Positions 27,721-53,100 of a stretch of DNA of 64,000 bases are shown piece after piece. Made by a program: the position numbers and the translations under genes. The notes under the pieces are model-generated. The model was not told the DNA's origin, searched no databases, and worked only from the letters and a program-made list of their open reading frames with translations. Every line of letters begins with the position of its first letter. Positions within the stretch are counted from its first letter, which is position 1. Source of the stretch: Balanoglossus misakiensis (taxonomy: Eukaryota; Animalia; Hemichordata); the NCBI GenBank assembly GCA_040954595.2, contig CM082587.2, positions 6,189,705-6,253,704 on the forward strand, written 5' to 3'.

Positions 27721-29094
27721 ATGAGAATTATAGCTTTTGCGCTAGTTTTGGCTTTTGTCGCCACCGTTCTAGCCGAGGACATAGGGAAAGGCGACGAACC
27801 GACAAAGGAGGTAAGGCGCTTTCAGTAAAAAAATAACTCGGACACCACAACAACTAAAGTGCGTAAGACAGTAGCTGGTTGCTCCAAACGCGTACCTCGC
27901 TTGAACCTCATTTCCGGTTTAACTCTCTGTCCAGTGTTTCTACTACAGTAATTAGAACATTTGCAATTTCCTGACTACAAGTTGGAAAGGTTTGTTTTCT
28001 TCGCCGCGACGCGACGTCACAAACGCACCGCGTCTCCATTGTGTACTCCGGCAAGCTGCTATTTGCATTGTTATTCAGACGCTGAACGCATGACGTGTTT
28101 TTTTGTGCTCCACGCCCGTATGGCCTCCATGCATAGAGTAACTGGGCTCCAATCAACAAGTGGGTGACCCTTGTACAACGTTGGCAATTAGCTTTTACCA
28201 AAGAAGCCAGCTTTTTCTATCAAGATTCTGCCGATAGTAACCAAGTCAATGGAAAGGATATAGAAAGAATTGGCACAAGTTTCCTTGTAGGCGTCAAAAC
28301 TGCCGTGGACTAGAGATGTTTTCCTGTCTAACAAATTTGCAAATTATTTTCCCTCGGGGAATTGTGGTTTTATGGAATGTGTTTCCCTCTAGTAACCTTT
28401 GGGAACGATGAATAATTTTCAAAAGATTTCTGTACCTCTTTAAAGTTGTGAATGGCAGGGTGTGAATGGCGAGGGTAGCAACTCAGCCAAAGTTGTCCTG
28501 AGTTGACTGCTAGTATCAGAATGTCTAATTCACTGTACACATGTATACATGTAGCTTATCTAAACGACTCTGCTTCTGGTTCGCTTTGTGTCTTTGCAGG
28601 TTGGTGACGACAAGAAAAAAGAAGTGCATGCGCATCACATGACGGCCGAACGGAAAGAAAAACTGATCCAGCACAAGAAACGGTTCATGAAAGTCCACCC
28701 AGAGAAGAAGGCCGAGGAGGAGCGAACGCACGCCGAGCGCGAACTCATGCGCAGCCTGAAGGACAGGGTCGTCGAGATCAAGAAATCCGACCTGCCCAAG
28801 GAGGAGAAGAAAGCCAAGCTCGACAACCTGAAAAGGGAAATCATCGAAACCAAAGCCAGCATCAAGAGCACCAGAGGCAAAGTGCAGCGGGCCAGGCTGA
28901 CGCCCGACCAGAGGCGCGCGCTCATCGCTCAGAAGAAAAGCGCCGGCGCTGCGAAGGGCACCGCCAACGGTGCTAAGCGTCTCCACTTGTCCGAGAAGAA
29001 AACCCATGGGAAAATCAACCGTGACGGTATGAAGGCTCACCCTCGCCCATTCCCCGCTAAGCGTGGAGAGATGAAGAATATGGAAGACCACTAG
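27721..29094 (+). CDS. Secreted Lys/Arg/Glu-rich helical protein of unknown function, 2 exons, 194 aa
   Basis: Exon 1 27721-27810 (accATG, signal peptide MRIIAFALVLAFVATVLA, GAG|GTAAGG) joined in phase 0 to exon 2 28600-29094 (tctttgcag|, GC3-rich codons, TAG). No family recognised. Confidence 0.85.
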
Positions 29095-29661: not shown

Positions 29662-32264
29662 CTACTTTCGGTTTCTTTTTATCAAGTTCAAGTACATGTA
29701 CATCCTATTTTTATCACCATATCCTGTGTGGAAGTATATTGTTTTCCTAATGTTTTCATATTTGTACTGACAGACGAATAAAATTGACATGGCAGAAGCA
29801 AAGAGCTGTCGTTGTCCGCTTTGAAAAAAAGTTTGACATCCCTCTTATTTGTTATTTCTTAACCCCATGTCGCGCTATTATCAGGCCCACAAGATTGCTT
29901 CTGATTGGTCGACTCGCTCATCAAAAACAGGTGCACGATCGGAGTTGCAACCAAAGAGAAAAGACCAATCAATGCGTTTGAATCGTTGCAATAAAAAAAT
30001 TAGTTACACGGACCTCTAATCAGACTGGCTTGGTCAATCAGGAAATCTTCTTGCGTGAGCTTCCCTTCAATGGATATCTATAGTAAAATGACACGGGGTA
30101 GATTTAAAGGCTATACTTATTCGGTAAATATAACTTAAATTATACGAAAAGTTCAACTGCCGGTGCGTGACCTTAGTTATTTTTGCGTATTGCGCAGAGG
30201 TCACGAGTTCACTTCACCAAGACGACAAAGTTTTCACACTTGCAGTAGTAAAGTCTCTACGCTAAAATTATTTGAAATAAATACCCCTTACCCCGAAAGA
30301 ATATAATGGTTTATCACTTGCATCGTAAACTGCAGAAAAGTATTTGCGGAACGACATAGTAACCGACTTACCTGTATGTCTTTTAAACTGCTAAATTCAC
30401 AGGTGGCGACGTATGAATTATTCACTGTGCTCGTAACCTTGAAATGAGGATTCAACATCGTGTTGCTCGCTGACATGTATATATTCAAGCTGATTCTGGC
30501 CTGGTCTGTCATTGCTTTGTGGTAGTAGACTTTGGCACAGTATTTTTCAGGAGTGTTAGATGCCAGTGTTTGGAACTCTTCGGGTTGGCGTTTCAAACCT
30601 ACAAGTAAGAGAGGCGGGGTTTAAGCATGGCCTGGTTCTCCGTGTCTGCGCGTGCGCTGTAGGGGAGAAGGATCTTGGATACTGCTGCATGCTGGGGGCA
30701 ATGAAGGTCTGTCGTTTCTCGTGCGGCGCTACAGGTGTATTTGCATAACTTCACATGCAGTACAGAATTTGTCTAGCTGTCAGCCTGCCTGCCTTTCTGT
30801 CCGTGTGTCTGTTTGACTTTCTCTTTATTTGTCTGTTTGTCCTATCTCTCTGACACACTAAACATACCTCCTTTTCTTTGGATGGCGGAGGGCGTGGTTT
30901 CACTATACAAGGACTTGCTAACTGAACTCAGCGGTAAGATAATGTACGATAAAAAATGCTTACCTGCCAAATGCACCGAAAATGCCTCATGTCCTTCATT
31001 TTGCCAAGATAATCTCGGTTCATTTCCCGCCCAATTCCACGATTTCAATATCGCACAAAAGCTCCTGGAGTCACCGACATCGGTACCAAACTTCGCAAGC
31101 AAATCGATGGCATGGCGGGAAAGATTTCCTGACGTGACACAGTCATCATGCACGGCGTTTCTCACCGAACGGAAATCATGCAGATCCCGCTCGAAGTCTG
31201 GTCCGTATTCTTTAATTTTATCCCACAACGTTTTGTTGAACAAGTCGTAAACCTTCACGTCGACGTGGTTCCATTCGCGTATGGCCTGCTTCAGCGCGTC
31301 GTCGAGCGGAACGCGATTTGGCCGCACCTTGGCGGGAATATACAGGACATCTTCCATTTTCCAGCACATGATTCTTTTGAGTAACACGAGGGAGTGGTCG
31401 AAATATTCAGCCACGAGAACCAAATCGAGTTCTTTGCTCAATCCCTCGAAGTATTTGTCGACGATTTTGGGGTCTTCGTGATATTTCCGATCCAAGCCAA
31501 GGTGCCAAGCCTGGCCATTCCGCGCCACCGACACGTGTCTGCGGCCTCCCTGTCGTTGAATCCGCGTGTTGTAATACTCTGGGTCCCGCAAGAACTCTGT
31601 CAGTCTGGCGAGGTCACTTGTGTAATTTTTCTGCTCGAAGAATTGGCCCAGCTCGAAATACTTGAACGCGGATTCAAAATTCTCGGCGGGCTCGCGCACT
31701 GACGCGACATAAACGGTCTTGGGAAATGTTGTCCTGCACTTCAGACCGGTCTCGTCGGCGCCGGCGATGTTCAGTGTTCCGTCCTCTCGCGGTACGTGGA
31801 TGCGATTCCGTCTGTCGATTCCCCGCCGCCGCCCAGGCAGCGTGGCGTCGCGGTTTTCTCCGTTGACGAGGTAGAGATCCATTGTCCCTCCGTAGCCTTC
31901 GCCCTCGTGGTGGATCACTTGGCGCTGCATGGGGAGCCTGTTTTTCCTGGCGAAGCTGGCGATCAGCGCCACCAGCGTCGTGCTGCCTGTCTTGCGATTG
32001 AACACGAGCGCAATGTTATCGCGTCGTTGGCAACCATTCGCGGTGAAATTTGTTGGGTCGATGTTCGCAGCACCACGTTCTTCCGAAGTGACCGCGTCCT
32101 TCCCGGGCGACGTATTAAACCGTTCCGGAAAAATCATGGAAGTCGATATCGATGCGTTTGTGTCGACTTTCGAAGAAATACAGCTGTTGGCAAATGAGAA
32201 AAAAAATAGGAAGATGATGGGACTTTTAATCCGCCAAGATTTCATTGTCAGTAGGCCTACTCTC

Positions 32265-32295
<31 letters not shown>

Positions 32296-32806
32296 GCTGA
32301 TAGGCTACCCACAAAGATTTATTTTATGTTTATCCAATTACTGGAGCTTTGGGGTTCTTCTACTCCCCTCCTAAGTCTTTTGAAACCATGGCAACCGCAA
32401 TGCAGATGTTGTTTACATACCTATATGCCTTCACTGTGGATGTACTTTTAACACCTTGACGTAGGCCAAAAATCGTGGCAGCGACAGTGCAGAACATTAA
32501 GGCCAAGCAGCAGGCTTTTGTCTGAACATAACAAATAATATATATATATGTAACTTGAGCACGTAATACGAACAATATATCAATAAAGTTTTAAAATCGA
32601 ATGTGCGAGGATAGACAGTGGGTTAAGGTTTAGGCCTACAGAACGAAAATCCACAAACGCGCCACATAATTATGATCGGGACTATTCTGACTGATATGAC
32701 ATTGGCATATATTGCTCTGAAGTTTAATTACCTTGTTCGGGCCTAATCGATGTGTGATCAGGAAGCGGGCAGACGGCTTTATATTGATGTGGTTGTAGTC
32801 GTTCAT
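29662..32806 (-). CDS. Galactose-3-O-sulfotransferase (GAL3ST/cerebroside sulfotransferase family), type II membrane protein, ~575 aa
   Basis: Exons 32806-32732, 32521-32421 (TM ACCLALMFCTVAATIFGL), 32183-30964 (catalytic), 30598-30372 and tentative last exon 29766-29662; phases 0,2,1,0 are consistent. 5'-PSB-like FNRKTGSTT, 3'-PB VREP..FESAFKYF, LVLVAEYFDHSLVLLKRIMCW, WNHVDVKVYDLFNKTLW. The last two exons are less certain. Confidence 0.88.
32264..32295. repeat. (CAA)n microsatellite in sulfotransferase intron
   Basis: About 10 CAA units. Confidence 0.93.
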
Positions 32807-35353
32807 CACGTTGGCGCTCAGTGTCGTCTCTGCCCGGGTTTACTACCCTGTCTTTGTGTTGCACTGTTGAAAAGTAAAAGAAATTTGTGGTGAAGGAAAA
32901 AAAACGTTGCACTACAGCGACAGAGTATGAACGATAGTGCGAAATGTGTGGGACAAATCGCTTCGTGGTTTACGCGACATAGAAGCGACGTAATGCCACG
33001 TGACGGAACTGTTTCTGGGGACACGTGTCCATACTGAACACTCTGTCCGCTTTGGCTCTGTTGATTTTTGGTTGTTCAAAGTGTTCACCTTTCACCTTTG
33101 CCCCGCTGATGCAAACATAACCTAGCTGCCCTACCATCCGTCGTTCAGTGGTTGTTTTGAAACCCCGGGCAAACAGAAAATGTGCCATGTTCGCGAAACA
33201 CGCTTCTTTTGAGCACAAATTAAGCCAAACATTATTAGTGCGAGCGGCTCGACTTTTAATGACAAAATTGCAATCTTCGTCTTGGGCTTTTTTAATTAAA
33301 TGCTAATCTCCGAAGTCGTTTTCACATTAATTGATTTCTTACTGTCCCCCGACACTTTTATCTGAAAATGATCTTGGCCTAATTTCCTACTTCTAGACAA
33401 CTTGAAGTTGGTTTGTTTTATTGTTCACGCATCAAGTTGGGAAAACGAAAGAAACTAATAGAACTTTTACATGAGATACTTTGAGTGTAAAACCATGAAA
33501 CCAATGCGATACAGTTCCACACAGTGGGTTTTTGATCCCTATACAGATACAGTCATGCATAGTGACTTTAATTGACAATAGCCAAAGGAATGCCATTAGT
33601 AATTTCGCGCAATCAATCATACCAACAAAATTAAGGGTAATTTTCTTCTCCTATAATGAATTAAACCCCGAAAGATATTTATAACACAAATGTCTTCAGA
33701 CAGTTTCTCTCTGCATTTTATTTTTTTCTATGTTCCTAAGTGAACTCCGCATCACTCGCGAAAATAACTTCTCTGCGGCCGGCACAGATCGCGAGAAGAG
33801 ATCGTGAAATTGTGTCAAATGACTTAGCAACTTTATAATTATTCATTGAGTCTCATGCGATCCAAATGACAGGCGATAGGTCAAGGCGAAGCTGTTTGTC
33901 AGTTTTATCTCAGTACCAGCAAAATAATTAAGGTTATAAATATTCCGTTGAAAACAAAAGAACTAAATAACTCTTTCACTGCCATGGTTTGGCCCAAATC
34001 CATTGTTTTCTATGGTTGAATTGGACCTCTGTAAAGTGAACTGGGGGTGAGAGGGTTTAATAAAGACGGCGCGGCTTGAAGATGTCACTTCTCAAGGTCT
34101 ATAATGTATCTCTTCGGTTTGCGAGAAATCTATCGCCACGGATGCACAAATTTTACTTAGAAGGATAAAGTGCCCCAAAATTGGAATTCCTCACAATCAC
34201 TTAACCATTAGTCTAAATATGATCCCAAAATAACCGTTTTATTTGCCATTGATGTTATTGAAATGAAGTCCAATTAATTTCACTTTGTGTGGGAAACATC
34301 TGTATATTACTGATAAATAGTTTGTTAGCGTTCCAGGATCACATATTACAATAAATCTATTAATAGCGGCGTTTGGCTCAAAGAGAATGGTACATGTATG
34401 AAGGTGTGGGTAATGCTTTTGCGTCGTTTTCAAGCCTTGCGATTACTGGCCGGGGATTGACATTATTTCACTACACGGTGTAATGGTAACGGCAAATGTC
34501 GACGGCACACATTATTGACCGCGATGATTTTCCTCAACAAAAACTCTTCGCTAATTGGACATGATGAATTAATGACGATCAAGAGAGACGGGAGATGGAC
34601 ATTTGAGATGACAGGAAGATTAATTCGAATTAGTATTGACGAAGAAATCGATTATTTATAAGGTGAATCGCTCCGTACGTACTAATGTACACCCCCTGAG
34701 AAAATTTTAATCAAGATATGGATCTATCGATGAAAGGCAATTACCAAAGGTGTTCGGCAAACGCTGGGTGAAAATAGCACTATCGCTCAACATAGGGGGT
34801 ATTGCTCTCACATCTGTACGCTTAATAATTCCCGGGTCTGTATCTACGTGTGGATTACTGCTCGATCTTTGCTTGCTGGAAAGGTGTGTCATTTATTTTC
34901 ATCAATGCCTTTGGTCCGACCTTTTCGCAGTACAGAAAATTAACCTTTGAGGTGAGAAGGGTGACGTCGTTCTTTTACAGATATTTCCAGCTATTGTTGA
35001 AAGCATATCTAATTGTATATTTAATATTAATGTTGTTTATATTGTAAGTGTGCGGGCTGAACACATTACAATAGAGACAGCGAGGTGAACGACGAGGCAT
35101 CTGTCCAGAGAAGATCGTAAAGAAGGGATATTTGTGATATTAATCGCAGTGAGAAAAAGTTCAGCAAAAGCTCATATTGATTTGTTTCCCTATTCGAAGG
35201 TAACTCGGAAAGTAGTCGTGTAGAAGAAATCGTAGGATACGACCACTGGTACAAGGAGACGTCCATGATATGACCAAAATAACAGGTTACATGTCACTGG
35301 CATAGACACAGTAACTCTGTCCGGTGGAGTTTGCCCCGGGTGTTTTGCACACG

Positions 35354-38300
35354 ATGGAACTGCAGACACTGTCAAAACGCGACGACGTCGTCATCTCATC
35401 GCCCGACGACGGGGACGGCGGCGGCGACGCCGAAATCTGCTGTACCCTGGTGACGAAGTTCGGGGAGTCGACGACATGCCACGGCCTCCCGAACATCCTC
35501 GGCGGCGGCAGCGCGTTGCCGAGGAGGCTGGTCTGGCTCGCCGTCTTCCTGACCGCGATGGGGGTGTTCGCTTTCCAAGCGTACGAACTCGTCAAAATGT
35601 TCCTGGCCTACGATGTCAGGGTGAACATTGAAATTGGAACGGCGCCGAGTCTGACTTTCCCGGCGGTGACGATTTGCAACACGAATAAGTTACGACTGTC
35701 TGCAATTGAGGGGAGCCGACACAGCGAACTGGCGAAAACGGATCCCGAGCACCCAGACAGCATTCACAGACTGCTATCTTACGACCGTAAGTTACAATAA
35801 TTGACGATTTTAGTTGTTGTTGCGGATTTCTTTTAAGACTTTCAATACAATGTCATCAGTGTTTTCATTTGACATCTACGATATTCCCTGTATTTCTAAG
35901 TTTTCCCGCCTCTCTGCCACATCTATTCTGTTCTTTCTCCAGTACCCACTCGTTTCGTCAGATCCTCGTTTGCTCTTTTCAGTTCTTTATTTTAGTTTTC
36001 AATCCTGCTCTTTTGTGCACATTTTCCCCTCGAGCATTTTGTTGACAAACTCCATAGACGTTGTTATTGTCTTTTGTGATTTTTTTTATGTCACGCACAG
36101 ATTCCATAAAGCTGGGTAAAGAGCTCACCTGTTTTTGTAATATCTTGGAGTTGCCCATCCAACACCTCACTTCTTGCGCTATCTTGTCCTATTTTCGGAG
36201 ATGTTTCCATTTCATCTTTACGATTCCTTTTGCATGCTTTACATAGCTGCACGTCGTTTTGGGTAAGGCTTACATGCTTGGTTTCGCCACAGTCAGCACA
36301 AGTCCTAGGCATGGTTGCTTGAATAACCGTTGTAACAGGTGTTACTGTAGAAGTAATATGCAAATTCCGTAAGACAATGGCTCGTTGACCAGCTCAGCAT
36401 CAGAACATGCTCGGCGATTTTCAATGTTCTGTTTTTCGTGAAAACAGTGCAAAATCACAAAAAACAATCAACTGGCATGACTCCGGACGTCTTCATAACA
36501 ACCCTTGTCAATTTTCAGTTAAAACTAACCTGGTTTGAAGCGAAAAATTTCGTTCTAACGGAGACGATGTGTCAGCACAACACCTCGCTGTGCAACGCCC
36601 TCTCTCGTCCACCTCAAGCTACAGTGCGGCTGGAATGCCTCCCAGTGTATAATTATGTTCCCCTAGCTTGGTCGCCTACCCTCATTTCTACCACTGGCAG
36701 CACTGTGCCTTACTTTGTAGCACGGCGCAATTATTGGCGGGAACGGGACAGGGGACCAGACGACAAAAAGTGGCGGATTCTATTACTGCCTTTCTGTATT
36801 TTCATCTCACCAGTTCCTTGTCTGCCTGGCGACTACCAATGTGCTGATGGCCAGCGTTGCATTAAGCAACATTTGAGGTGTGACGGATACTTTCACTGTT
36901 GGGATGGTTTTAGCGATGAGACGGACTGTATTTATCGTAAGTATGAAAAATGAGGTGGTGAATACCACGCTTTCTTCTTTGATTTCAAAAGAATTGAAAT
37001 GTTCTGGAGACTATCATTTTTTCTGAACAAAACTGCAGACTCATCACTAATGGTATTATTCAGATTCGCCGATTCTGATAGCAATCATCTCCGCGGCATT
37101 ATTTATAGTTCAAATCAGGTTAATAAACAGTGAACGACTAGTCATTAAGGTCGAGAAAATTAAATTTTGATAGTAATTGAACCTCTCAGAGGAATGTAAC
37201 AATGGATGGCCATCTTTCGGTTGGTGACATGTCAATAGACGGTGTGAATTAGTCCTACTCGGGGGAACAGCGTCATTTAAACTACCACTCTTAATACGCC
37301 CCCGGTTTCTTTTTGTTGACTTCGTATACTGCAGTTCATTATCGTTCTTTTCTTCTCTTTTATTGATTGATGGAATCAATCTCACTTCTCAGTGTACGCA
37401 TTTTGATTGTGCCCTGTGAATCATTTCTTTCACCCTAGCACCATGCGGGAGAGACGAGTTCAACTGTGGCCAGGCCGGTTTCCATGGCATTTGCATCCCT
37501 GAGGAGAAACGATGTGACGGCATCCGCCATTGTTTTGGAGGGGAGGATGAAAAAGACTGTCGTAAGTTTCTTTGTGTTTCTTGTGTCGGCCTCCTGGCTG
37601 GATTACTTCGCTGTCTTAAAATAATGTACAAGTAAATGTAGCACACGATGGAGTACAAAAGAACACAGACCAAATAGGCCTATGTCCGTGAAGCTATAGC
37701 CTAGTTACGGAAAGGGAGGAAAAATACGATCTTAATGTTTTGCAGCCGTTTGCACTGGAGGACACGCATGCGACCCCGCTTTGGAAGGTCGGGGCTACAA
37801 GTGTATACCATTGGACAGCATGTGTGACCGATTCCCAGACTGCGCCGATGGGACAGATGAGGGCCGCTGTGACTTCCGTAAGTACATGTATGACTCCAGT
37901 GTTGCGTCGCCAGGAACTATCTAGAATGATCGCATTGAACAAGGTGCATGGGGATGTCCGACAGAAACGAAAACCAATATATTCTACTATCCAATCTTGC
38001 ATTTTTGTGCTTGCGTATGTAAATCCTCTACAGATGAGTTCTGGTTTTCTTTTTTCACAGTCGATGGATGTGAATTTCCTAGGTTAGTTGTCGAGGCAAC
38101 GCCTTCCATATTATACTCAACGAACTATCCACACGAATACGACAACGATGGCTCGTGTGTCGTGAATCTGACAGTCTCTGGAATGTCTCACGATCCCTGG
38201 GACTGGAATGGCGGCTGGGGCGATAGGCCCCGGGACTGTGTCTTATTGTCCTTCTTGGAGTTAGATATCGAAGCCAGCGAAAGCTGCGAAAATGACTACA

Positions 38301-41300
38301 TCGAGGTCAGTCGAATCGCTCTGATATTTAGTTTAAAATTAATGTATATTTTAGTTTTTTTCGAGGTGTACCATTATTCTGTACATTGATTCCGAAAATG
38401 TCAGATATAGTACTTTACTCACAAGAAACGAAAGAAGTATATTTTGGGTACAACTTGTTCTGTGGACAAAATCCGAAATGCCAATGGAAGAATAAATAAT
38501 GAAATACTCGCTTTTCGGTATCATTTTTCCTCTTCATTATTTCGCTTTATTACTCCGTCGACAACAGATTCGGGATGTTCAAAACCCCAATATTACAGTC
38601 CGCCACTGTGGAAGCAAGATACCGCCATCTTGGGTCTCGTCGTCAAGGGACGTCATGGTTAAATTTGTTAGCAACGACAGGATTACTGGTCGAGGGTATC
38701 GTATTGAATATTCACCAACCTCATGTTCATCCTCGAACTACTGGAATGTTTCACCTTGGAGCGAGGTCAGTGTTTAAGGAAAAGTTTGACTTAAAGGTTT
38801 TAGGATGAAAATGATAGAATTTAGTTGGGAGGGTGTAGAATTACATGTCGACGAGGGCGGTGTTTTAACTATTATGACGCGTGTGCCGATCTGGCAGTGA
38901 ATGTCGTTGACATGCAACTGAGGCGTGTGATCGCGAGATGAACTCAGATATCGCAACAAAGAGACCGCGATCATCGCCCTGTCAAGCTGCCCATTCCACT
39001 TCTACCCTGAAACTATATTTTACCTCCGTAGTGCTCTAGGACCTGCGGTGGCGGAGTGCGAGAGCGACAGGTTGAATGCGCCACTGCTGATGCGACGCCC
39101 GATGCCTCCTCCGAAGCCCGCGCCCGCTCCGAAGATGAAGTCGACTCGTACCCATTCCCGCCGCCCCCTCCTCCGAGTTTTACTGATCCCAACTACGGTG
39201 TCGATTGGACCGACGTCGGTGGTTCACGTGACACCGTCTGCATAGCACCCGGATCGTTACCTGCGACGTCGGAGCCGTGCAAGGCTGAATTCTGTCCAGG
39301 AGGTGAGCACGGACAATGGCTTTCAAGACAATTTCTGTCATGTCACAGTGATTTTGGCGGGAAAGGTCACAGTGATTTTGGCGGGAAAGCTGAAATCAGT
39401 CAAAACAAGTGTCATGCGTTGGAAACAGGAATGAGACATGAGCTTAAGTTGCTTATCGCCACCATTTTCTGTCATTTCAAACATTTTACTCACATATTTC
39501 ACCATATATATGATATTTTTTGCCACGTACAGAGGAACAGTGCAACATGTTTCTGACTGAGTGTTGCATGGAAATCAAGTCCCCGGGTTATCCATTGGAC
39601 TATCCTCCTGATGTTGATTGTGCTGTTCGGATTCTGAACGCCGATGGGTGTATCGCTCTGACTATTCATGACATTGACATGCCGGACAGTGATAGGTGTC
39701 ATAAGGACTATCTTGAGGTAATCCGATATAGTCATGCATGTATCATGTTATTGATTTGATGGAAAAAACACACGATGAAATATGTTGGTATCATCATTTT
39801 CTCACACCCTGGAAGTGTGGGAATAATGGATCCCACACTCTCGCAGACTCAAAAGTGTTATATGACACCAGTGCTGATTGGATAATAAACATTCTTTAAT
39901 TAACACGCACGAACTGTTATCCAATGACACAATGTGTAATACATGGGCAGACGACCGATAGCACGATCAATTATTGAATATTTCTTTACAGATTAGACAA
40001 TTTTTGGTTCTAGTGAGACAATATTGTCGTTTTTATTATTATTTTGTATAGTATGAAGAAATTCGTCAGAGTGAAGAAGTTTATCAACGTCGCTTTTGCG
40101 GTCAACAGTCAGGGTTACGAATGATGTCCTCATCAGCTATGATTAGTCTGATGTTTCATTCAGACAGTGTCATATCTGGCAAAGGATTTAGGGCAAGCTA
40201 CGAATTTGTTGCATGTGGAACTTGGTTCATGTCTCCGTGGAGCGAGGTAGGTACAGATGGTTTCATTCTCTTTAAAGAGGCATTAATGCTTAGGTCTGTT
40301 TGCATTTGTGATTTTTGAACCAGTGGACCATTTTTGTTCAATTAATACTAGAGATCTTCCCATCGTTTGGGAGTGTCTTTTTGTTTTTCATGTGTTCTGT
40401 TTCTCCCCCCTCCCCCTCCAGTGCACCGTTACCTGTGGCTACGGTCAACGAGTTCGACAGGTACACTGCATAAGCCGATCGGAAAACACAGTAATAGAGG
40501 ACAAGTTTTGTGAAGGGGACAAGCCAGATTCTCAGAAACAGTGTGATCAAATTTGTTCGGGTATGTGAAGGAAATATTTCTTAGTCAGTCTTTTGCTGTT
40601 TTGCTTAACAATATCACAGTGTTTTTACTTTTAGATGGATCATGTCTTCATATTTTGTTATGCGGTTTTCAACTGCAATATTAGGAAACAATGTTTTTCT
40701 TGTAGTTGTATATTGTGGGGTTTCTATACCTTGGGCAAATCTCAATCTGCCTGGATAGTTTCTATACGAGGCTATGCATTTTGGCATCTAGAAATTATTT
40801 TGGTCGAAGTCCAGGTGATGTAGTTCACTTTCATTTATTTTCTTGTAGCACCAGGTCCCCCGGGACAAATGTTAGATACTCTCAACTTCTTGTATGGAAA
40901 CCACAAGCATATTTGTGACGATCTGAATGTGTACAGAGACTTCTTGAACAACTACTATAAGCCCAATAACTTCGACCGTGTCGACGTATCTCCATACCCT
41001 AACTGGAAAGGTGAGTGTTATCCAGCTCATTTTCAAGCTTTGCTTTAAGCTCCATTAGCTGCATCTTTTTGCCAAGTTGTAAGCATTTTTATTTTGTCTA
41101 TCTACAGCAGTTTCTTGTTCACATTCCTGAAATATGAAATTCCCAGCATTTTTCTCGATACTCGTATAATAGGTTTTCTAGCGTTCAGTTCCAGTCCAGA
41201 TTACAGTGACCTGCAGAAGGTACTTGATTTAAGCAAAGAAGAAGTTGCCATGTTTGGACACCAGGCTGAAGATTTCATACTGCAGTGTTCCTTTGACGAA

Positions 41301-44300
41301 ATGTACTGTGACTATGGGTGAGTTCCATTTGACACACTAAATTTATAAATATTAAAACATTGTCCTTTGATTATAGGTATGATAATTAATAAGCTCACAT
41401 AAAAGCTTTCATGGTTGTCAAGACAGGGTTAATTCAAGTTTCTTTGAAGTAGAATGTGCTTGTATAGGGCATGCTGACTGGGATTGTACACATAAACACA
41501 GTGGCAATGTTGAATATACACACATGGACTTTGTCAATAAGCCACATACTAGGTATTTCCGTCGTTTACGTGTCATGTTTACCCAATCATATTACACTGT
41601 TTCATTTCCCAGAAATTTCAGCGCATTTGAAAACGACTATTACGGAAATTGCTTCACGTTCAACAGCGGGCATGTAAACAATCAGAGTTTATTGATGTCC
41701 AACCGGCCAGGAAGTAGATATGGTAGGTGGTGCTCGCATAAAATGTAAAGCTTGTCTTTCAAGGCCAGAGACTCTGCGAGAGATCCATTGCATAGGTTAG
41801 CAGTTTACTTGGAAGGACTTTCCCATATGACACAGGACAAACATCACATGGCCCATCGTGTTAAACATTTGTTAAACTCTTCATCTATTCTATTTTCATG
41901 TCTTTATTAATTGGCAAGCAGCCTATTTCTAAGGTCATTAACCAAGTCTCGCGAGATCTTGCAATGGGTGGAAATTCATCGACTGACATATATTAGAATA
42001 TGAGTGAAAACTTTGTAGTGTGTCAAATTAACCGTATTTCTACAGATTGCGGTTGTCACAATAACCACATTCAGGTAATATATTTTGATCACAGGTTTAA
42101 AACTCACTTTGTTCATTGAGCAAAACGAATACATACCGCTGTATGGGCAGGAGGCTGGGGTCCGTGTGTTGATTCATTCACCTGATGTTACACCATTCCC
42201 AGAGGACGATGGTATTACAGTGGCCCCTGGCTCAAAGACTTCCATTGGACTAAGAATGGTTTGCCATATCTTTTACAATTTTACATTTGGTTCTATTCCA
42301 CCTTTGCCAAAGATGAGCTTCACATAATCACATAGCAAGAAAACAGCATTACATGTTGTAACAGTGTCATGCATTCATCGCATCTGAGTGGCTTAGAATG
42401 TGCATGCATCTTGTAGATAGACCCCTTTGGAAAATTAGTTATTAGTTCATGACCACGTATTATTAATTACCTCTGCAGGACACAGTAGAGGGGCTCAGTG
42501 AACCATACACCAATTGCACCAACCAGGAGGAGTTTGATTCTATATATGGACAAGGGTATAGATATTCAGATTTGGTAAGTATTTTTAACACACAGATTTG
42601 GTTATTGTTTGTGTTTCCTTTCATTGAAGAAGTGGGGAATGTCAGTGATCACCATGAAAGATGAGGTGACACAATCATTCTTGTAATAATTAGATACATT
42701 TACCGTCTAGTGTACATGGTTAAAGTTGGTTATTATAGGTCCTAGTCTGTGGACTTACAAGGCCACAGTGGATGATGTCACAAATGCAAAGAAATAGTCA
42801 CCCTCAAGTTATTTTCTCTTTCAACAGGATTGCATGAAGACAAAAATTCAACAGTACATAGAAGAGGAATGTGGGTGTGTGGATACAATGTACATGAGCG
42901 GAATCCCATGTGATATAACTGATTACGAGGAGGGTAAGTGTGACCCATGAAAGTATTTGGTAATGTTGCTTCTGGATTACAGCTTGAACCATGGTTGCTG
43001 GCGTGTGAGCAAGTTACTCTCACTTCTAATGGGACGCTGACAGTGCAAGGAATGAGTTATTGGATTATGTTTTACTTTGAGCATTGATTACAAACATTCC
43101 ACAGCACAAGATACAGGGATATTTACAGAAAAGTGTTTTAACCCCACTATTAATCACAAAATGTGTTAATTATTTAAATAGTGGTTTCTCCTTTAGTTCA
43201 TTTTTAAATAATTCAGAAAAATGTATACAATCTTAAAGAAACATTTGTTTTTCATTTCTTTTTAATAGAAATGTGCCGCCAATTGATGGAATTTTTCTAC
43301 CAACGCGGATTGTTGTCAAATGATTGCAAGGAACCCTGCAAGTAAGTTTTTTTATGGAGATGATGATGATCATGATGATCATTATCATCATGGTGATCTC
43401 GCTGATGATAATAATGATCGTGGTGGTGGTGGGTGGTCCCTCATCTGTCAATAATACAAAATTTAACTTTTCCTTGCTTTACAGAGAGGTCAAATATAGC
43501 AAGACAATGTCACAGTCACAGTGGCCTTCCAATAGTCACGTGGTGAGTAACCATAGAAACAGAAATCTGGACCTGGTAATATATTCTTGTATCATTTATC
43601 ATTCAGTGTTTCCTTATCTACTTAATTCAAAACTATCCCTTTTTAATCTGCTTAAATCCTTTCTAGGGAGGCCTCATAAAAGTGTTGCGTCCACTAAACA
43701 CAAAAGTGCGAGATCATGTCTTTGACGAAAAATCGGCGAGGTAAATCACCCTGGCAATGAAACAGCAGCACCTTTTGCATGTCAATTGAGCATGTACACA
43801 TAAAAGCCGGAACTAGCATTTAATAACACAAAATGAGTTGTCTAATTTTTACCCACAATGCAATTAAAATAACATGACCACAACCCCCAGCATGAACTTA
43901 AACTATTGAAGTTAGCGAGAATTGTTTATACGTACAACACGTGAACAGCAAAAGTCACGCATGAAAATACATTGCACGTCTTCATCAAATCGTGCTTTTA
44001 AAGTCGGTCCATTGGGATTTAAAAGTTGCGATCCAACCTTTATTGCTGTTTTGCAGAGACAACCTAATACGACTTAATGTGTACTACGATGAATTAAACT
44101 ATCAGAAAATCACCAAGTTACCTGCTTATAGGGTACGTTCATTAATTTTATACCACCCAACCATATATTTTAATATATTTATTTATAATTATACACTGAT
44201 CTGTCTATATTTTTATCTACTCGATATTTTATGTCCATACCCACTGTAACACGTCCCGTTATTCCAAACAGATTGAAGAACTACTCGCAGATATCGGCGG

Positions 44301-44433
44301 TATATTGGGACTGTACATTGGGATGTCATTGATAACAGCTGTCGAAATCATTCAGTTCCTTGTGGACCTTGTGCGATATTTTGCGTTTCGGTCAAGGGAC
44401 ACCAAACAGAACCGAACACCATCTCACATTTGA
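35354..44433 (+). CDS. DEG/ENaC (amiloride-sensitive channel family) subunit with inserted LDLa x3, CUB x2, TSP1 x2 domains; 21 exons, ~1089 aa
   Basis: Exons 35354-35786, 36814-36936, 37439-37561, 37746-37877, 38061-38305, 38568-38765, 39032-39302, 39533-39717, 40052-40246, 40422-40560, 40849-41010, 41173-41317, 41613-41722, 42095-42258, 42479-42574, 42828-42933, 43269-43341, 43485-43542, 43667-43740, 44057-44132, 44272-44433; 3270 nt in frame. Channel motifs: STTCHG, TM1, FPAVTICNTN, GHQAEDFILQCSF, YGNCFTFN, GVRVLIH, QWPS, TM2 LADIGGILGLYIGMSLITAVE. Confidence 0.93.
43358..43432. repeat. Imperfect (ATG/ATC)n low-complexity tract in channel intron 17
   Basis: Degenerate GAT/ATC/GGT triplet runs. 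Confidence 0.7.
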
Positions 44434-45140
44434 AGACGAAAACGCGAATAGGCTGAAGGGGTATACATCAACTGTACAAACATTGCAACACAGTTATATA
44501 TATATATAGCTGTAGCCTAATGCAGATATGTTTAATTTTGCTTAGTAGTTAGAATAACTTTTTCGAGAAATGTCCGGACTCAGTGTGAAGCTCTGGAAAA
44601 TTTCAGAATTAATCATTAATGCTGCCGTATATTTTGATGCATTTGATTCTTTGGTTCTTGGCTGGGAACATGTATTCATATTGTGCGGCATCATAGGAAG
44701 AGACCACAGTGAAAAGTAGTCTTCGGATTTCTTTGATCAAATTATAACTCTTGATGTTTTTTCGATACTTGTATGATAACATTGAGTTCACGTATGCCCA
44801 TTGTTATCATTGTGCTCAGTAAATATTTGGCAACATGGAGAAAGTCGTGTACATTCGTTTCAAGATTTTATGTGTAAAATACGAAATAAAAAGCATGTTC
44901 GAATTCGCCCAAACATTTCCATTCTACGCGCCTATCATGCGAGGTGTGATATGTATACCCAGCAAACACTGTTATCGCTTGCACGACGTCACAGCACCAC
45001 CGAGCCGATTCCACCCAGAACAGTCGGCAAGCTACTTTTCCATCGCGGTCAGGTGGAATCGTAGAGTGGTCGTATCACTGGGATCAAACCCGCGAGTATT
45101 TACTTCTCCCTGTTTAACGGAATAATCGACAACCGATGCC

Positions 45141-48100
45141 ATGTATTCACTCCGTCGTGTGCAGTACCTTCTCTTGTGTTTACATCTTTTCACAGTGGCG
45201 TTGCACGGCGAGCCAGTTCGGTTCGACGGGTAAGCGTTTTCGAATTACAATTTACATGTGTAGTTGTATTTCATAATCGCTGCGTGTTCATATATTGATT
45301 GTCTGTGTGGTTACATTGCGAGCTTTGCATCGGCACTGGAAAAGTTTGTATGGAGCTGAAACTAAAAGGAAGACTGTGATTGCGTTTTTGGGGGGAAAGG
45401 GATAGTTGAAAATGAGTGCCGATAAAATGATTGTAAAAACTGAGGTACCAGGCGCATATACAATGGTGCACAATTGTGTTTGAGGTGGAAACCAGACTGG
45501 ACTCGAAATCGACGGAACTGACCACCTGTTAGATTCCCTGCTTTCGACACAAATACATTCGCAAGATTTAAAACATCAGTCTGCAAAGTGTGACCATTCA
45601 ATGTGTTTATTGGAAAGACGACTGGTGTACGTTTTGTGCAAATATTTACCTGTCAACATGTCAAGAAAGTCACACTACTCAACACTGTATTTGATTTTGG
45701 GCGACAGGTACGAAGTTTTAAGGGTCAAAGTTGAAACGGAGAGAGATTTGGACGTCATAAAAGATATCTTGGCATCAGATAGGGTGAGTAAAGTAATCAA
45801 GATTCAGGTGCGGCCGTTTTAGGAGTTAAAACTGTTTGAATGGTGAAATACTGTAGTGCAGAATACTAATGAAATAAAATTATAAGCAAGCGCCTAGGTA
45901 ATCCTAACACGAATAGGTGTGGAACAATAACAAAGTCGTGTCTCAAATGTCCAATTTAATTGACAACGAAAAACAGTATTTTAATCTTGTTGTTTTGGGA
46001 ACGTTTTCATTTATACAGTATGATGCGTGGGACTATCCCAGCGATATCATGACAGCTCCTTCCGACGCTGATTGGTTGAAAACGAGTCTCCATGACGCTG
46101 AAATCCATTACGAAGTTTTGATAGAAGATGTCCAAAAACTTATCGACAGCGAGAGAGTGCGGCCAGGTGTAGGCCATTTTTCTGCCGATGACGTCACCGT
46201 TCAAAATGTCCACAATTTTGATTATTTTGTGTATCATCGGTATTCCGAGGTAAGACGCTACAGGAAAACCTGGTAAGATTCATGCTAAATTTACAGTCAC
46301 TGGGGTAGGACAAAGTCCACATATTTTCGATTACAGCCAAACCTGTGACAGTTGCCACCTCTATTATAGTGGCCACCACTCCAACGCATGGCAACGACTG
46401 AGGGATTTTTTGTCCATTCTCTCCCAGATTGACCAGTGGATCAAAGACACCGCTGCAAAGTATCCTAGTCTCGCCAAAGAGTTTGTTTTGGGAAGATCCT
46501 ACGAGAAGAGGGTTGTGAGAGCCTTGAAGGTGAGATTGTGTAGAACTATGTTACAAAATTTGTTGGGCAACCATATCAGCCACTTGGGCTTGCCTGCACG
46601 ATGTTGTTCGAATCGGATAGTCATAGTCTTGGTATTGTTTTCCTTATCAGCTTGGAAATTCTTCGAGGGGTGACGTCAGAGAAGCCATGTGGATCCACAG
46701 TGGCATCCATGCCAGGGAGTGGATCTCACCTGCCACCAACTTGTGGATGACCAATCAGGTAACACCATCCGCGGCGCACCTGGTCTGCCTGGTATCAGGA
46801 AAATATACATAATTAAATATTCATCACTGTCACTATACTTGCTTATTGGAAAATTTTCCTTTGTGACAGATGAGCACCAGTCCAGGATCCATCCACTTTA
46901 GAATGCAAATAATCCGTAAATTGTTTTGAGAGATTTCCGATTTCATATGCGCAGATGCTGATGGAGTACGGGAACGATGACGTCATCACAGACTTGTTAG
47001 ACAGATTTGATCTGTACATATTGTTCAGTATGAACCCCGACGGTTATGATTACACTTGGAACGAGGTGAGAATCCTCTTGCTGGACAAAATGGGAGAGAT
47101 TGGGGGGGGGGGTAAGTGGGGGAATGGAAGGGTAGTGTTGAGAGACAATGAACGGACAGAACGATTGTCGACGATAAATAAAGGAGCGGCAGAAATGGGT
47201 GTACGTAACGCTGGAATGAAGTGAAGAGTGGAGGGGAGGAATAAAGGAAGATGGCGGTTTGAAATAAATTGCTGTTTTGACATGCCGCGACTAAGTGCTG
47301 ACAAGACAATTTTACGGCCAAATCCCCGAAAACCTGTATCATTAATTCGGCATGCCTAAGTTCTCTCACACTGACATTGAAAATTATCGATTTAATTCTC
47401 TGCAAATACAGAACAGACTATGGAGAAAAACAAGATCCAAGAATCTCGGGAGTGACTGCATGGGAACGGATCCCAACAGGAATTGGGCATTCGAATGGGG
47501 AGGTAACCTCGACAAAAAGTCTTGTCAACGTTTGCTGTCTTTTGCTGTGACGTTTGTAACCTTTCTTACAAACACTTTGAAAGACGCCACGGTCCAAACA
47601 TGTCTGAGGAAACGCATCACACGATCCGTATACTGATATGTGTGGTTAAGAAATCATCACGTCTCCTTCTTTATAGTTTATGGCGCGTAATTACGAGTAA
47701 AATATGTCACCGTTTCTGCTCGCCACCAGGAGACGGAGTAAGCTTCAATCCGTGCAGTAACGTCTTCTGTGGACCGTATCCGAATTCCGAGATCGAGGTG
47801 AAGATCGTGATTGACTTTCTCCAAGACGCCGCCAAGAGGCAAGACTTCAAATTCTTCATGGATATCCACAGCTATTCGAACATGTTCCTGAACGCTTGGG
47901 GGTACACGGCCGAGCTCCCGCCAGATTATGGCGAACACGTGAGTTATTGAAATCTAATGGGCCATTTTCCGAACTGCACGAGACCCTGCGAGATCTCGCG
48001 AGGCTAGGCAGATTATATGGTGGACGGTCTCTTTTTGACACAAACAACACATGGCCGTTGTAATTTTGTTCTTCCCGGTGGTATACTGTCCCAAGACGAC

Positions 48101-50129: not shown

Positions 50130-53100
50130 ATGAATCGCATCATGCCGCACATGACGAGGGCGTCGGGCGGAGACACCCGCCGTAACAGCGACGGCTCCAC
50201 GTCGAGTTACGGATCCATGAGCAACGTCGGCTCGTCGATCCGTGAAGAGCTGGAGGGCCACGACAAGGGACTGTGCCGTGCGACGAATCTGACCCAGATG
50301 GGCAAACGGCGGCAGATGTTGAAAGTGTTGACACTGACCCTTCTGCCAATTATTGTGTTGACTATTCTGGCCATATCGGACTTGGTGAGGGTAAGTAGCG
50401 ACGTCAACGAACACAAATTTAAACTTTTTTGAATTAAAACTGTAAAAGCTTTGAGTTAATATTTAAATTTTGCTTAGATCAAGAGAAATGTGCGTGGTTC
50501 CAACTTGTGGAAACACGGCGCGCTTGGTTTAAGTGGTCAAATACATCTTGAAAAAGATGAAACTTGTCCACCTTCCGACATCGTGAATATTGCTTTTCAA
50601 TGCAGACTATCTATCGAAGTGTCGACGCCGCCGAAATCAGACGAAACGTTCGCTTCAGTCGTCAAGTGGGCGCGTTGGTTCACAGTCTGCAAATCGAACG
50701 CGATATGACGGCGCTGTACATCCAGTCCCAAGAGCAGGCTCGAACCGGACCCGAGCGCAAGATCTTCCTCATCAGCACGTACCCTGTGACAGACGAAGTG
50801 TTGGAAAGTCTAGACGACTGGCCGTCGTTTGGAACGAGGGCGTACCAGCATTTCAAGAACAAGGAGGCGTTTATGTCTTTCCTCTTCGAATACCGATTGA
50901 CTTTGGACGTCCACAATACCACCATCTACGAGGTAAGCTTGTGGGGCGAAGTTATTAACCGGTCTTAAAGAAATGCCCGTGTGTTAAGTCGGAATAAGTT
51001 CAATATCAGCTTGATCGGTAGCCATCTTTTTAAGTGATCGTTTTCGAAAGTTGAAAATACGACTCTTCGAATAGGCCACAATCGGAAATGGAAATCGCCG
51101 GGAATCATGCGGCTTTGAATGTCAGGAATGGAAGGCGAAAGTTGAACATGTGTCTCCGGGTTTGACTGTCAATATTCGGGTTTGACTTTCCATATTCACG
51201 CCGAGTTCTTGTTTTCCGCCCGCAGGTGATCCACTTCTACACCGACGCCACCCAGATATTCATCGACTGGTTGAACGAAGCAGTGGGGAAGTCCGGAGGC
51301 CAGGGATTGTGGGAGACTTTGGTGGCGTATCAGCTGCTGATCATCGGCATGGAGCAGATCGGAATCGAGCGAACGTTAGGGGCGGTGTTCTACACCCAGG
51401 GCGGCTTCGGGCGCCATAAGGACTACTTGTGGTACATGGAAAAATTCCAAGTAAGTTCCCCTTGCTTGCCATTGATGAAAAAGGGGGCTAAAATAACACA
51501 CAAGTTGAGTGCTAATACTTCATTTTCACTTATAAAAGAAAATGCGCACACCAAACAACACCAAAGGACAAAAATCATTACCAATTTCGATAAATTGGCC
51601 AAAGATGCCCTATTAATAAAACAAATCTAAGACGAATTTCCTTCACTGCAGGTTGGTGAAAGAAATATATGGATTTCACAGCAGTACTCGAGGCTCATCG
51701 CCGAGATCTTAGAGTACAAGGTGCAACAGCTGGACTACGATTTCCGCGGCACCATCGAAGAGCTGCGCAGACCCATCCAGCTGAACAATCTTTCCAGGGA
51801 GGCCTCGTGGCAAGAAGGCACGTGGTGGTTCGACAACATGACCATCTACATCGACACCCTGAAGGACAGCCAGCGGCGCATGGCCGAGATCATCCTCTGG
51901 AAGCTGGAAGAGCTACGCACGAAGGACGACACCGAGCTGGGCGTCAGCATCGGCATCATGGTGGTGGTGCTGGTCATGTGCGCCATCATCATCAAGGCGG
52001 CCGAGTCCCTGACGACCAACATACAGAACTACGCGCTCACCCTGGCGACGCAGACCAAGGCGCTGAACAAGGAGCGCAAGCGCACCGACTACCTGCTGTA
52101 CCGGATGCTGCCGAAGAGCGTGGCCGACCAGCTGAAGGTGAACAAGGGCGTCACCGCCGAGTCCTTCTCCGAAGCCACCATATTCTTCTCGGACATCGTC
52201 GGGTTTACTCGGATATGCTCGGACAGCACGCCCATGCAGGTGGTCGAGATGCTGAACACGGTCTACACAAACTTCGACAGCCGCATTGACACATACGACG
52301 TCTATAAAGTAGAAACTATTGGCGATTCGTATATGGTTGTGTCAGGTATCTTTACAGGTGCTATACATGAATATTTACAAAATCTCAGTTATTTTTTAAA
52401 ATATCATTAATACAAATTGCATATATTTAGAGTCCTGCTTCTATCCAGTGGCTGCGTTCGCGCGTTTGAAAAATCCTCGGAACAGCAGGTCTTTTAGCAA
52501 AAAGCTTATCCCTGCTCCTTTAGAATAGAGCTAGCAAATCATCTTTATTGTCCATAATATCATAGACCCATCTCCGAAACAGCAGAAGTATCCACGTAGT
52601 TTTTGCGGATGATAAACGCGTCAGGGTCGTATTGCCATGTGAATTCTACCAAAAAAGTACGTCACAGCGGTGTCGATAAAAATAAGTTCCAATAGCAATT
52701 AATATATGTTTAAAGCTGAAACTAAAAATTGAGCTCGCTCGGACCGGGAAAAACAGAAAAAAAAAACGCAGCGCCCTTAGGCCGAATGATAAAACAGAAC
52801 ATCTTTACGGGTAAATTTGAAGGTTGAATAATATCCGAATTAATGATAGTTATTTTGTTTTCAACTTGCCGCTTTTTTCAATGCTAATCCTGTACATTTT
52901 TAGGTAAGATGTAAATATATTTTTGCACATGCCGTTTCAACTCTTGACAGGCGTTCCGGAGAGGAACGGGAATCGCCACGCGAGCGAGATCGCCATCATG
53001 GCGCTGGACCTGGTCAGCTGCATCGAGGGACTGGTCATACCCCACAAGCCGGGCACGAAGATGACGATTCGCATCGGAATACACACCGGGCCGGTGGTGG

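Follow-up and report, generated by a model that had tools for sequence, protein, structure and literature searches.

A DEG/ENaC channel gene of the acorn worm Balanoglossus misakiensis with receptor modules at the finger site of the ENaC GRIP domain

At one locus of the acorn worm Balanoglossus misakiensis (Hemichordata), exons for receptor-type extracellular modules lie between exons for the two halves of a DEG/ENaC ion channel, which raises the question of whether they are read as one protein and what such an arm might do to the channel. The locus was analyzed in a window of 64,000 nucleotides (nt) of contig CM082587.2 (assembly GCA_040954595.2, positions 6,189,705 to 6,253,704, forward strand), and all coordinates below are counted from its first letter. 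An earlier note on this DNA had claimed a channel of ~1089 amino acids (aa) at 35354-44433 that carries three LDL-receptor class A repeats (LDLa) and two CUB-TSP1 units in its extracellular part. Based on the sequence comparisons described here, this cassette channel is a real, conserved and apparently undescribed variant in the DEG/ENaC family.

The exon model was rebuilt from 34500-45500 and gave a single gene at 35354-44433 with 21 exons and 20 introns, all of them GT-AG, whose one open frame (coding sequence 3270 nt) encodes 1089 aa followed by a stop codon (Table 1). Junctions, phases and protein length agree with those claimed before, and the nine cassette exons (2-10, 36814-40560) again add up to 1611 nt or 537 aa, in the order LDLa x3-CUB-TSP1-CUB-TSP1. 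For exon 12, the acceptor at 41173 was chosen over that at 41182, both being valid AG sites; the choice was guided by homology, since the homologues showed three residues missing. Pfam was run on 19 single-exon translations, exons 18 and 19 lying outside the scan, and exons 11, 12, 15 and 17 gave no match as single exons. Searches by tblastn with database proteins, which are independent of the exon model, matched the exons in order, and the homologue P0005 matched all 21.

The encoded protein has the features of the DEG/ENaC superfamily (Pfam ASC, PF00858), that is, two helices, HG, FPAVTxCN, GNCxTFN and a G/S-x-S filter. They correspond to H43-G44, the first transmembrane helix (TM1), FPAVTICN at 102, GNCFTFN at 795, the second transmembrane helix (TM2) and the filter G1053-M-S1055, and the degenerin position is occupied by a small residue (A1042). 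Hydropathy peaks were observed only near aa 58-80 and 1037-1067, which places one transmembrane helix on either side of a large extracellular domain; in the model of P0005, the helices lie at 55-84 and 1035-1076. With these motifs in place and Pfam ASC matches on both sides of the cassette, the subunit is complete, as had been proposed. In the thumb (42828-43341), two cysteines of gamma-ENaC are absent from both the window protein and P0005, which looks like the loss of one disulfide; P0009 keeps both. In the paralogues P0002, P0003 and P0011, the HG motif is lost (RV, HA, HC) and the filter of P0002 is S-I-S; these proteins may be accessory subunits of heteromers.

The first point to settle is whether cassette and core belong to one gene. 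Ten full-length database gene models with an identical layout were found (six from Ptychodera, two from Glandiceps and two from Saccoglossus), and for nine of them BLAST gave a whole-length identity to the window protein of 41-61%, with the alignment continuous over both cassette junctions. Among them are Ptychodera flava XP_070582191, XP_070574544, XP_070574541 and XP_070532193, Glandiceps talaboti LOC144437595 and LOC144437989, and Saccoglossus kowalevskii LOC102803109 and LOC100378515, all with the domain order of the window protein. The only source name carried by the hemichordate models, the best of which is 61% identical to the window protein, is 'uncharacterized protein'; automated annotations in other invertebrates, which the earlier note had not excluded, were thus found as uncharacterised gene models. 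A query with exon 1 returned four proteins from 352 candidates, all from Ptychodera flava, three with the full Pfam set and one a 292-aa fragment. A query with the P0005 core, limited to proteins of 598-1904 aa and so favouring long proteins, found 53 proteins; the same Pfam set was complete in 8 of them and partial in 2, and 16 had other extracellular modules. Judged from these sequences, the layout is conserved across three hemichordate genera (Ptychodera, Glandiceps and Saccoglossus).

Trees of the C-terminal core alone, a check that the earlier note had suggested, point in the same direction. From 229 sequences, 168 had a core of sufficient length, and removal of 23 isoforms or partial cores left 145 rows; the trees are unrooted and hold no vertebrate ENaC or other vertebrate references. 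The LDLa3-CUB-TSP1-CUB-TSP1 family, with the window protein inside it, formed one hemichordate clade of 12 of the 145 rows with support 100. It is nested in a 54-row clade (support 95) whose named rows are hemichordates or echinoderms only and in which 53 rows bear modules, the sole exception being a 325-aa fragment. A 49-row IQ-TREE analysis likewise gave the family as one clade (8 rows, 99/97) within the wider clade (98/96). Since core-only trees give one family clade, cassette and core have been passed on as a unit.

Several observations weigh against reading the exons as one protein. Both introns flanking the cassette are phase 1, so a transcript that skips it (35786>40849) would stay in frame, and an open frame of 198 codons (36357-36953, + strand) extends from intron 1 to within exon 2, in register with the coding sequence. 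The hemichordate homologues are all gene predictions. The portion of an older gene set that was covered (PMC10507113 supplement) cuts both ways: it supports the two junctions, exon 1 being joined to LDLa and TSP1 to the core in separate models, but one Saccoglossus gene is split into two models, and LDLa exons are missing from two Ptychodera models. A metagenome scan with alignment A1 found a cassette match in 0 of 67 loci, and a scan with P0185 gave no matches at all. It could be argued that the cassette exons are skipped or form a nested gene and that gene prediction has produced a false fusion. Against this stand the collinearity of ten models from three genera, the single clade obtained from the core alone and the near-universal modules of the wider clade. 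By hydropathy, the only measure applied, no ATG in intron 1 begins an obvious signal peptide, the 198-codon frame has no clear one and the cassette has none of its own ahead of exon 2, as had been noted before; in intron 10, no poly(A) hexamer was found. The surroundings of the cassette showed no long repeat and no transposon-like ends. Moreover, two short contigs hold unbroken frames: P0185 (848 aa, 3048-nt contig) has TM1, LDLa and CUB or CUB-like modules and then the core, and P0052 (732 aa, 4233-nt contig) has LDLa and CUB or CUB-like modules before the core. Both come from another branch and back the principle, not this gene. On balance, we consider an artefact extremely unlikely, and exons 1-21 very probably form a single gene for one protein.

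The second question is where the cassette enters the channel. It had been placed in the finger, shortly after FPAVTICN; the finger was correct, and the exact start lies 43 residues past the start of that motif, behind helix alpha1 and a conserved linker. Downstream, the family profile aligns the post-cassette motif with alpha2 of alpha- and gamma-ENaC, the ENaC inhibitory tract falling into the gap ahead of the motif, and W734 is the counterpart of the ENaC alpha2 tryptophan. The motif W-x-x-F/Y/L was present in 29 of 43 module-bearing proteins, nine of which lacked the anchor used. According to PMC6197857 (here and below, papers are cited for the parts of them that were covered), GRIP lies between alpha1 and alpha2 of ENaC as an inhibitory wedge, the alpha2 tryptophans are contacts of the inhibitory segment, and removal of this segment has been proposed to shift finger and thumb. 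By alignment, the cassette is in the alpha1-alpha2 gap of the finger, the place of GRIP in ENaC.

Structure prediction agrees with this placement. An AlphaFold model of P0005 (61% identical, 104-row alignment) reached a predicted local distance difference test score (pLDDT) of 85.6 and a predicted template modelling score of 0.65, with low confidence only at the termini, in the loop of the first TSP1 module (TSP1-1) and in the exit linker; an earlier run with 11 sequences, in which the core was unfolded (pLDDT 54.4), was not used. Residues 87-1032 superposed on residues 80-521 of gamma-ENaC (6wth_C) with Z 34.0 and a root mean square deviation of 2.8 over 344 residues, and FaNaC and ASIC1 followed closely (Z 25-32 for the FaNaC/ASIC type). 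In the predicted structure, both channel halves close into one ENaC fold with palm, beta-ball, finger, thumb and knuckle, and the modules are folded separately.

The cassette itself shows traces of its assembly. Each CUB-TSP1 unit consists of three exons with internal phase-0 introns at matching places. Aligned to each other, the units reach a score of 198, compared with a mean of 32 and a maximum of 49 in 300 shuffles; the second unit is likely an internal duplication. Phase 1-1 modules together with paired units would fit exon shuffling followed by this duplication. Apart from channels, the fetched proteins that matched the CUB-TSP1 unit best, ahead of cubilin-like proteins, were unnamed TSP1/CUB arrays, among them three ADAMTS-type proteases of 3300-3800 aa (P0069, P0100 and P0107; 19-30 TSP1 and 8-11 CUB matches; 30-36% identity to the unit), which makes such proteases a possible source. 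EGF gave no match in the 19 exon scans or in P0005 and P0006.

Similar modules occur on other channels of the family. A representatives search listed 150 proteins, of which 47 long ones were picked for a Pfam scan, and 36 of the 47 combined ASC with extracellular modules, namely LDLa with kringle, PAN, CUB, F5/8, HYR or ShK; separate scans found SRCR and Link modules on ASC channels as well. Ten DEG/ENaCs (P0013, P0076, P0026, P0033, P0123, P0103, P0038, P0192, P0150 and P0039) bear up to 12 LDLa plus kringle, PAN, F5/8, SRCR, HYR, ShK or Link, and several of them are labelled 'LRP2-like' by their sources, a name that hides the channel. Module-bearing channels were also found in amphioxus, acoels, snails and one shrimp. 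The snail LDLa channels are nested among cassette-free channels, and a single origin of all LDLa-bearing channels was rejected for the snail group (approximately unbiased test, p-AU 5e-6; the group was named after the first tree had been seen); the snail channels probably arose separately. Joining the acoel channels, P0185, P0052 and the shrimp channel to the acorn-worm clade (p 0.16) or joining the amphioxus type to it (p 0.42) was not rejected. The trees would fit at least two gains of modules or, alternatively, a single ancient gain followed by many losses. As a side observation, the echinoderm proteins P0022, P0028, P0029 and P0031, module-free relatives, have long inserts with R-x-K/R-R motifs at the cassette site, which seem closer to a GRIP-like cleavable loop. 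We tentatively suggest, at somewhat less than even probability, that the alpha1-alpha2 gap is a socket repeatedly filled with receptor modules (LDLa, CUB, TSP1, kringle, PAN, SRCR, F5/8, Link, HYR and ShK), that these channels form a large overlooked class for which folded proteins, glycans or microbial surfaces are direct gating stimuli, and that GRIP of ENaC is one small case.

What might the arm do? Regional conservation offers a hint. Across 10 homologues, identity declines outward from the linker before the cassette (74%, the second most conserved of the 17 regions compared) to LDLa1 (70%), LDLa2 (63%), LDLa3 (55%) and the CUB modules (40-41%), compared with 81% for palm and beta-ball. 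Linker and LDLa1 are still 46-58% identical to the best-matching channels with other cassettes, and TSP1-1 contains at aa 435-485 an acidic loop, rich in proline, that varies among homologues (5% identity) and has a pLDDT below 50 in the P0005 model. The cassette modules have a net acidic charge, and acidic LDLa and CUB modules are expected to bind basic residues in a Ca2+-dependent way. We give about an even chance to a mechanism in which the arm, standing in place of GRIP, binds an extracellular protein, and binding releases a latch on the finger and gates the pore. A trimer would bear up to three such arms. Because identity declines along the arm, LDLa1-2 may lie on the finger as the latch; this fixed base would carry a variable tip, whose acidic CUB and TSP1 modules would determine the ligand, probably a basic protein with Ca2+. 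Binding would free the latch, much as GRIP cleavage does in ENaC, and move helices alpha1 and alpha2 of the finger. For the protease ADAMTS13, a latent state maintained by its distal TSP1 and CUB domains has likewise been proposed.

Three points weigh against this gating mechanism. The high conservation of LDLa1-2 could stem from a ligand that is itself conserved rather than from packing against the finger. At the usual Asp position, His is found in LDLa1 of all 11 proteins of the family, in LDLa2 of 7 and in LDLa3 of none; this Asp is a Ca2+-binding residue, and LDLa1 may be abnormal as a ligand-binding repeat. Lastly, the nearest precedent, EGAS-1 to -4, gave no currents in oocytes (PMC10424705).

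The same features can be read in other ways. In the window protein, the two TSP1 modules each fit C-x-x-S/T-C-x-x-G, the O-fucosylation pattern, and the cassette forms a closed loop through which force would reach both alpha1 and alpha2. These features would suit a built-in tether to extracellular matrix or mucus, with shear or stretch on the finger opening the pore. Models of this kind have been put forward for MEC-4/MEC-10, together with MEC-1/5/9, and for ENaC via N-glycans, although the same source marks several tether cases as lacking direct evidence (PMC9108448). Modules are widely swapped among paralogues, which is easier to reconcile with a choice of ligands than with a generic anchor, and we regard a tether as rather unlikely.

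In their composition, the modules also recall auxiliary subunits, CUB and LDLa being the usual make-up of NETO, SOL-2 and LEV-10. The arm might thus be a fused auxiliary subunit for clustering, trafficking or tuning, a task that these proteins perform for other receptors, the true stimulus being something else, and the paralogues P0002, P0003 and P0011, without HG or the G-x-S glycine, hint at heteromers with accessory subunits. Such a role, however, would not account well for an insert at the one ENaC site tied to gating, next to so strongly conserved a linker, and appears unlikely to us.

The position of the cassette, the exposed and unstructured TSP1-1 loop and the presence of R-x-K/R-R in this gap in many cassette-free relatives and in P0185 would also agree with a giant GRIP that prevents gating as long as no protease has excised it or been recruited by it. 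The window protein, however, has no such furin consensus between residues 111 and 760; the consensus is absent in 6 of the 11 family members, in the other five it lies outside the linker and the cassette borders, and release would need two cuts. We therefore think a giant GRIP very unlikely, and protein-driven release of a latch stays the preferred mechanism.

Comparison with known systems helps to delimit the new layout. Vertebrate ENaC has a C-terminal PY motif, whereas the short tail of the window protein after TM2 has none. ENaC alpha, beta and gamma subunits (PDB 6wth, 9blr; PMC6197857) are the best structural and the best profile match (378 bits, against 354 for ASIC1 and 338 for FaNaC, in a comparison beside trees that hold no vertebrate ENaC) and share the insert site and the alpha2 tryptophan. 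ENaC GRIP is a small protease-cut beta domain, whereas the window protein has there 537 aa in seven foreign modules without a furin consensus, and it is short of one thumb cysteine pair of gamma-ENaC. EGAS proteins, which the earlier note had cited as a precedent, also join extracellular repeat modules to an ASC domain, but these are EGF repeats and not LDLa, CUB and TSP1, and their cloning primers (PMC10424705) suggest, by eye, a hydrophobic signal-like start, whereas the window protein keeps HG and TM1 and bears its modules inside the finger; the precedent is a loose one.

FaNaC, WaNaC, MGIC and the ASICs have the same fold and are gated by extracellular ligands; in them, it is the channel core that binds the short peptides or the protons. 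Folded receptor modules are not described for these channels in the parts of the DEG/ENaC phylogeny papers 10.1101/261990, PMC9234716 and PMC9949801 that were covered. LDLa repeats in the Platynereis MGIC were considered but dropped from the comparison after 10.1101/261990 gave 0 hits for LDL, CUB and lipoprotein. The ADAMTS-type proteases match the CUB-TSP1 unit and offer, in ADAMTS13, a precedent for a latch, but they are secreted enzymes, unlike the two-helix channel of the window. Proteins of the NETO/LEV-10 type are separate single-pass proteins with a signal peptide, whereas the modules here lie inside a two-helix channel chain with no obvious signal peptide.

No second DEG/ENaC gene was found in the window. 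Neighbouring genes and other features are listed with the exons in Table 1.

Table 1. Exons of the cassette channel gene and further features of the 64,000-nt window
Feature	Position	Strand	Content	Evidence
Exon 1	35354-35786	+	aa 1-145: cytosolic N-terminus, HG motif, TM1, beta1, beta2 (FPAVTICN), alpha1, conserved linker	Pfam ASC 36-125, E 6e-20
Exon 2	36814-36936	+	LDLa repeat 1, phase 1-1, 6 Cys	Pfam Ldl_recept_a E 2e-8
Exon 3	37439-37561	+	LDLa repeat 2, phase 1-1, 6 Cys	Pfam Ldl_recept_a E 1e-8
Exon 4	37746-37877	+	LDLa repeat 3, phase 1-1, 6 Cys	Pfam Ldl_recept_a E 1e-5
Exons 5-7	38061-38305, 38568-38765, 39032-39302	+	CUB1 and TSP1-1, phase 1-1 unit	Pfam CUB in 5 and 6, TSP1_ADAMTS in 7
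Exons 8-10	39533-39717, 40052-40246, 40422-40560	+	CUB2 and TSP1-2, second phase 1-1 unit	Pfam CUB in 8 and 9, TSP1_ADAMTS in 10
Exons 11-12	40849-41010, 41173-41317	+	Finger resumes: alpha2 (W734), alpha3, beta3	Profile alignment to alpha-/gamma-ENaC
Exons 13-14	41613-41722, 42095-42258	+	GNCFTFN, beta-ball, palm strands	Pfam ASC in 14, weak in 13
Exons 15-17	42479-42574, 42828-42933, 43269-43341	+	Cysteine-rich thumb	Homologue alignment; weak Pfam ASC in 16
Exons 18-20	43485-43542, 43667-43740, 44057-44132	+	One palm strand, then knuckle and final palm strands	tblastn/alignment; weak Pfam ASC in 20
Exon 21	44272-44433	+	TM2 (A1042-D1043, G-M-S filter 1053-1055), short C-tail, stop	Pfam ASC E 3e-8
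Intron 7 repeat	39342-39389		Perfect tandem duplication of 24 nt	
Lysine- and glutamate-rich frame	28564-29094	+	176 codons	No Pfam match
Galactose-3-O-sulfotransferase domain	30842-32323	-	Long single frame, upstream and divergent	Pfam E 2e-38
M14 zinc carboxypeptidase gene	~45500-47950	+	~1 kb downstream	Pfam propeptide and peptidase matches
Guanylate cyclase	~50560-52410	+	N-terminal NIT (nitrate/nitrite sensing) domain and HNOBA	Pfam
Exons resembling alpha-spectrin	~61400-63450	-		By eye

With regard to earlier work, no description of the LDLa x3-CUB-TSP1-CUB-TSP1 channel layout, functional or other, was found in the full-text literature searched, which was judged by titles and the beginnings of abstracts and to which most subscription journals do not belong; the earlier note had known of no functional description either. 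As far as they were covered, the phylogeny papers 10.1101/261990, PMC9822975 and PMC9234716 do not mention an LDL or CUB domain, PMC10507113 does not mention an LDL domain (CUB was not among the terms searched there), and PMC9949801 mentions neither, the context of four 'cub' hits aside, its supplements containing 0 of 5 family motifs; one scanned supplement each of PMC10507113 and PMC9822975 lay outside the search. The ambulacrarian channels of clade B are termed uncharacterised in PMC10507113, and its data files contain sequences of the family, the modules being unmentioned in the text covered. PMC9108448 and PMC11526382 served, beyond the points given above, as general background.

DEG/ENaC channels have been described as responding to protons, short peptides, proteases, small molecules or force (for part of these stimuli, see PMC9822975 and PMC10507113). 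If the proposed mechanism is true, binding of an extracellular protein would be turned into a fast current without a G-protein-coupled receptor or kinase. The gene would also be a clean system in which to test the tether model of mechanogating, which is disputed for DEG/ENaC channels: the candidate tether belongs to the channel's own chain, from which an in-frame deletion can take it out. Finally, a single core on which modules have been swapped many times in nature would provide a ready comparative series for the family.

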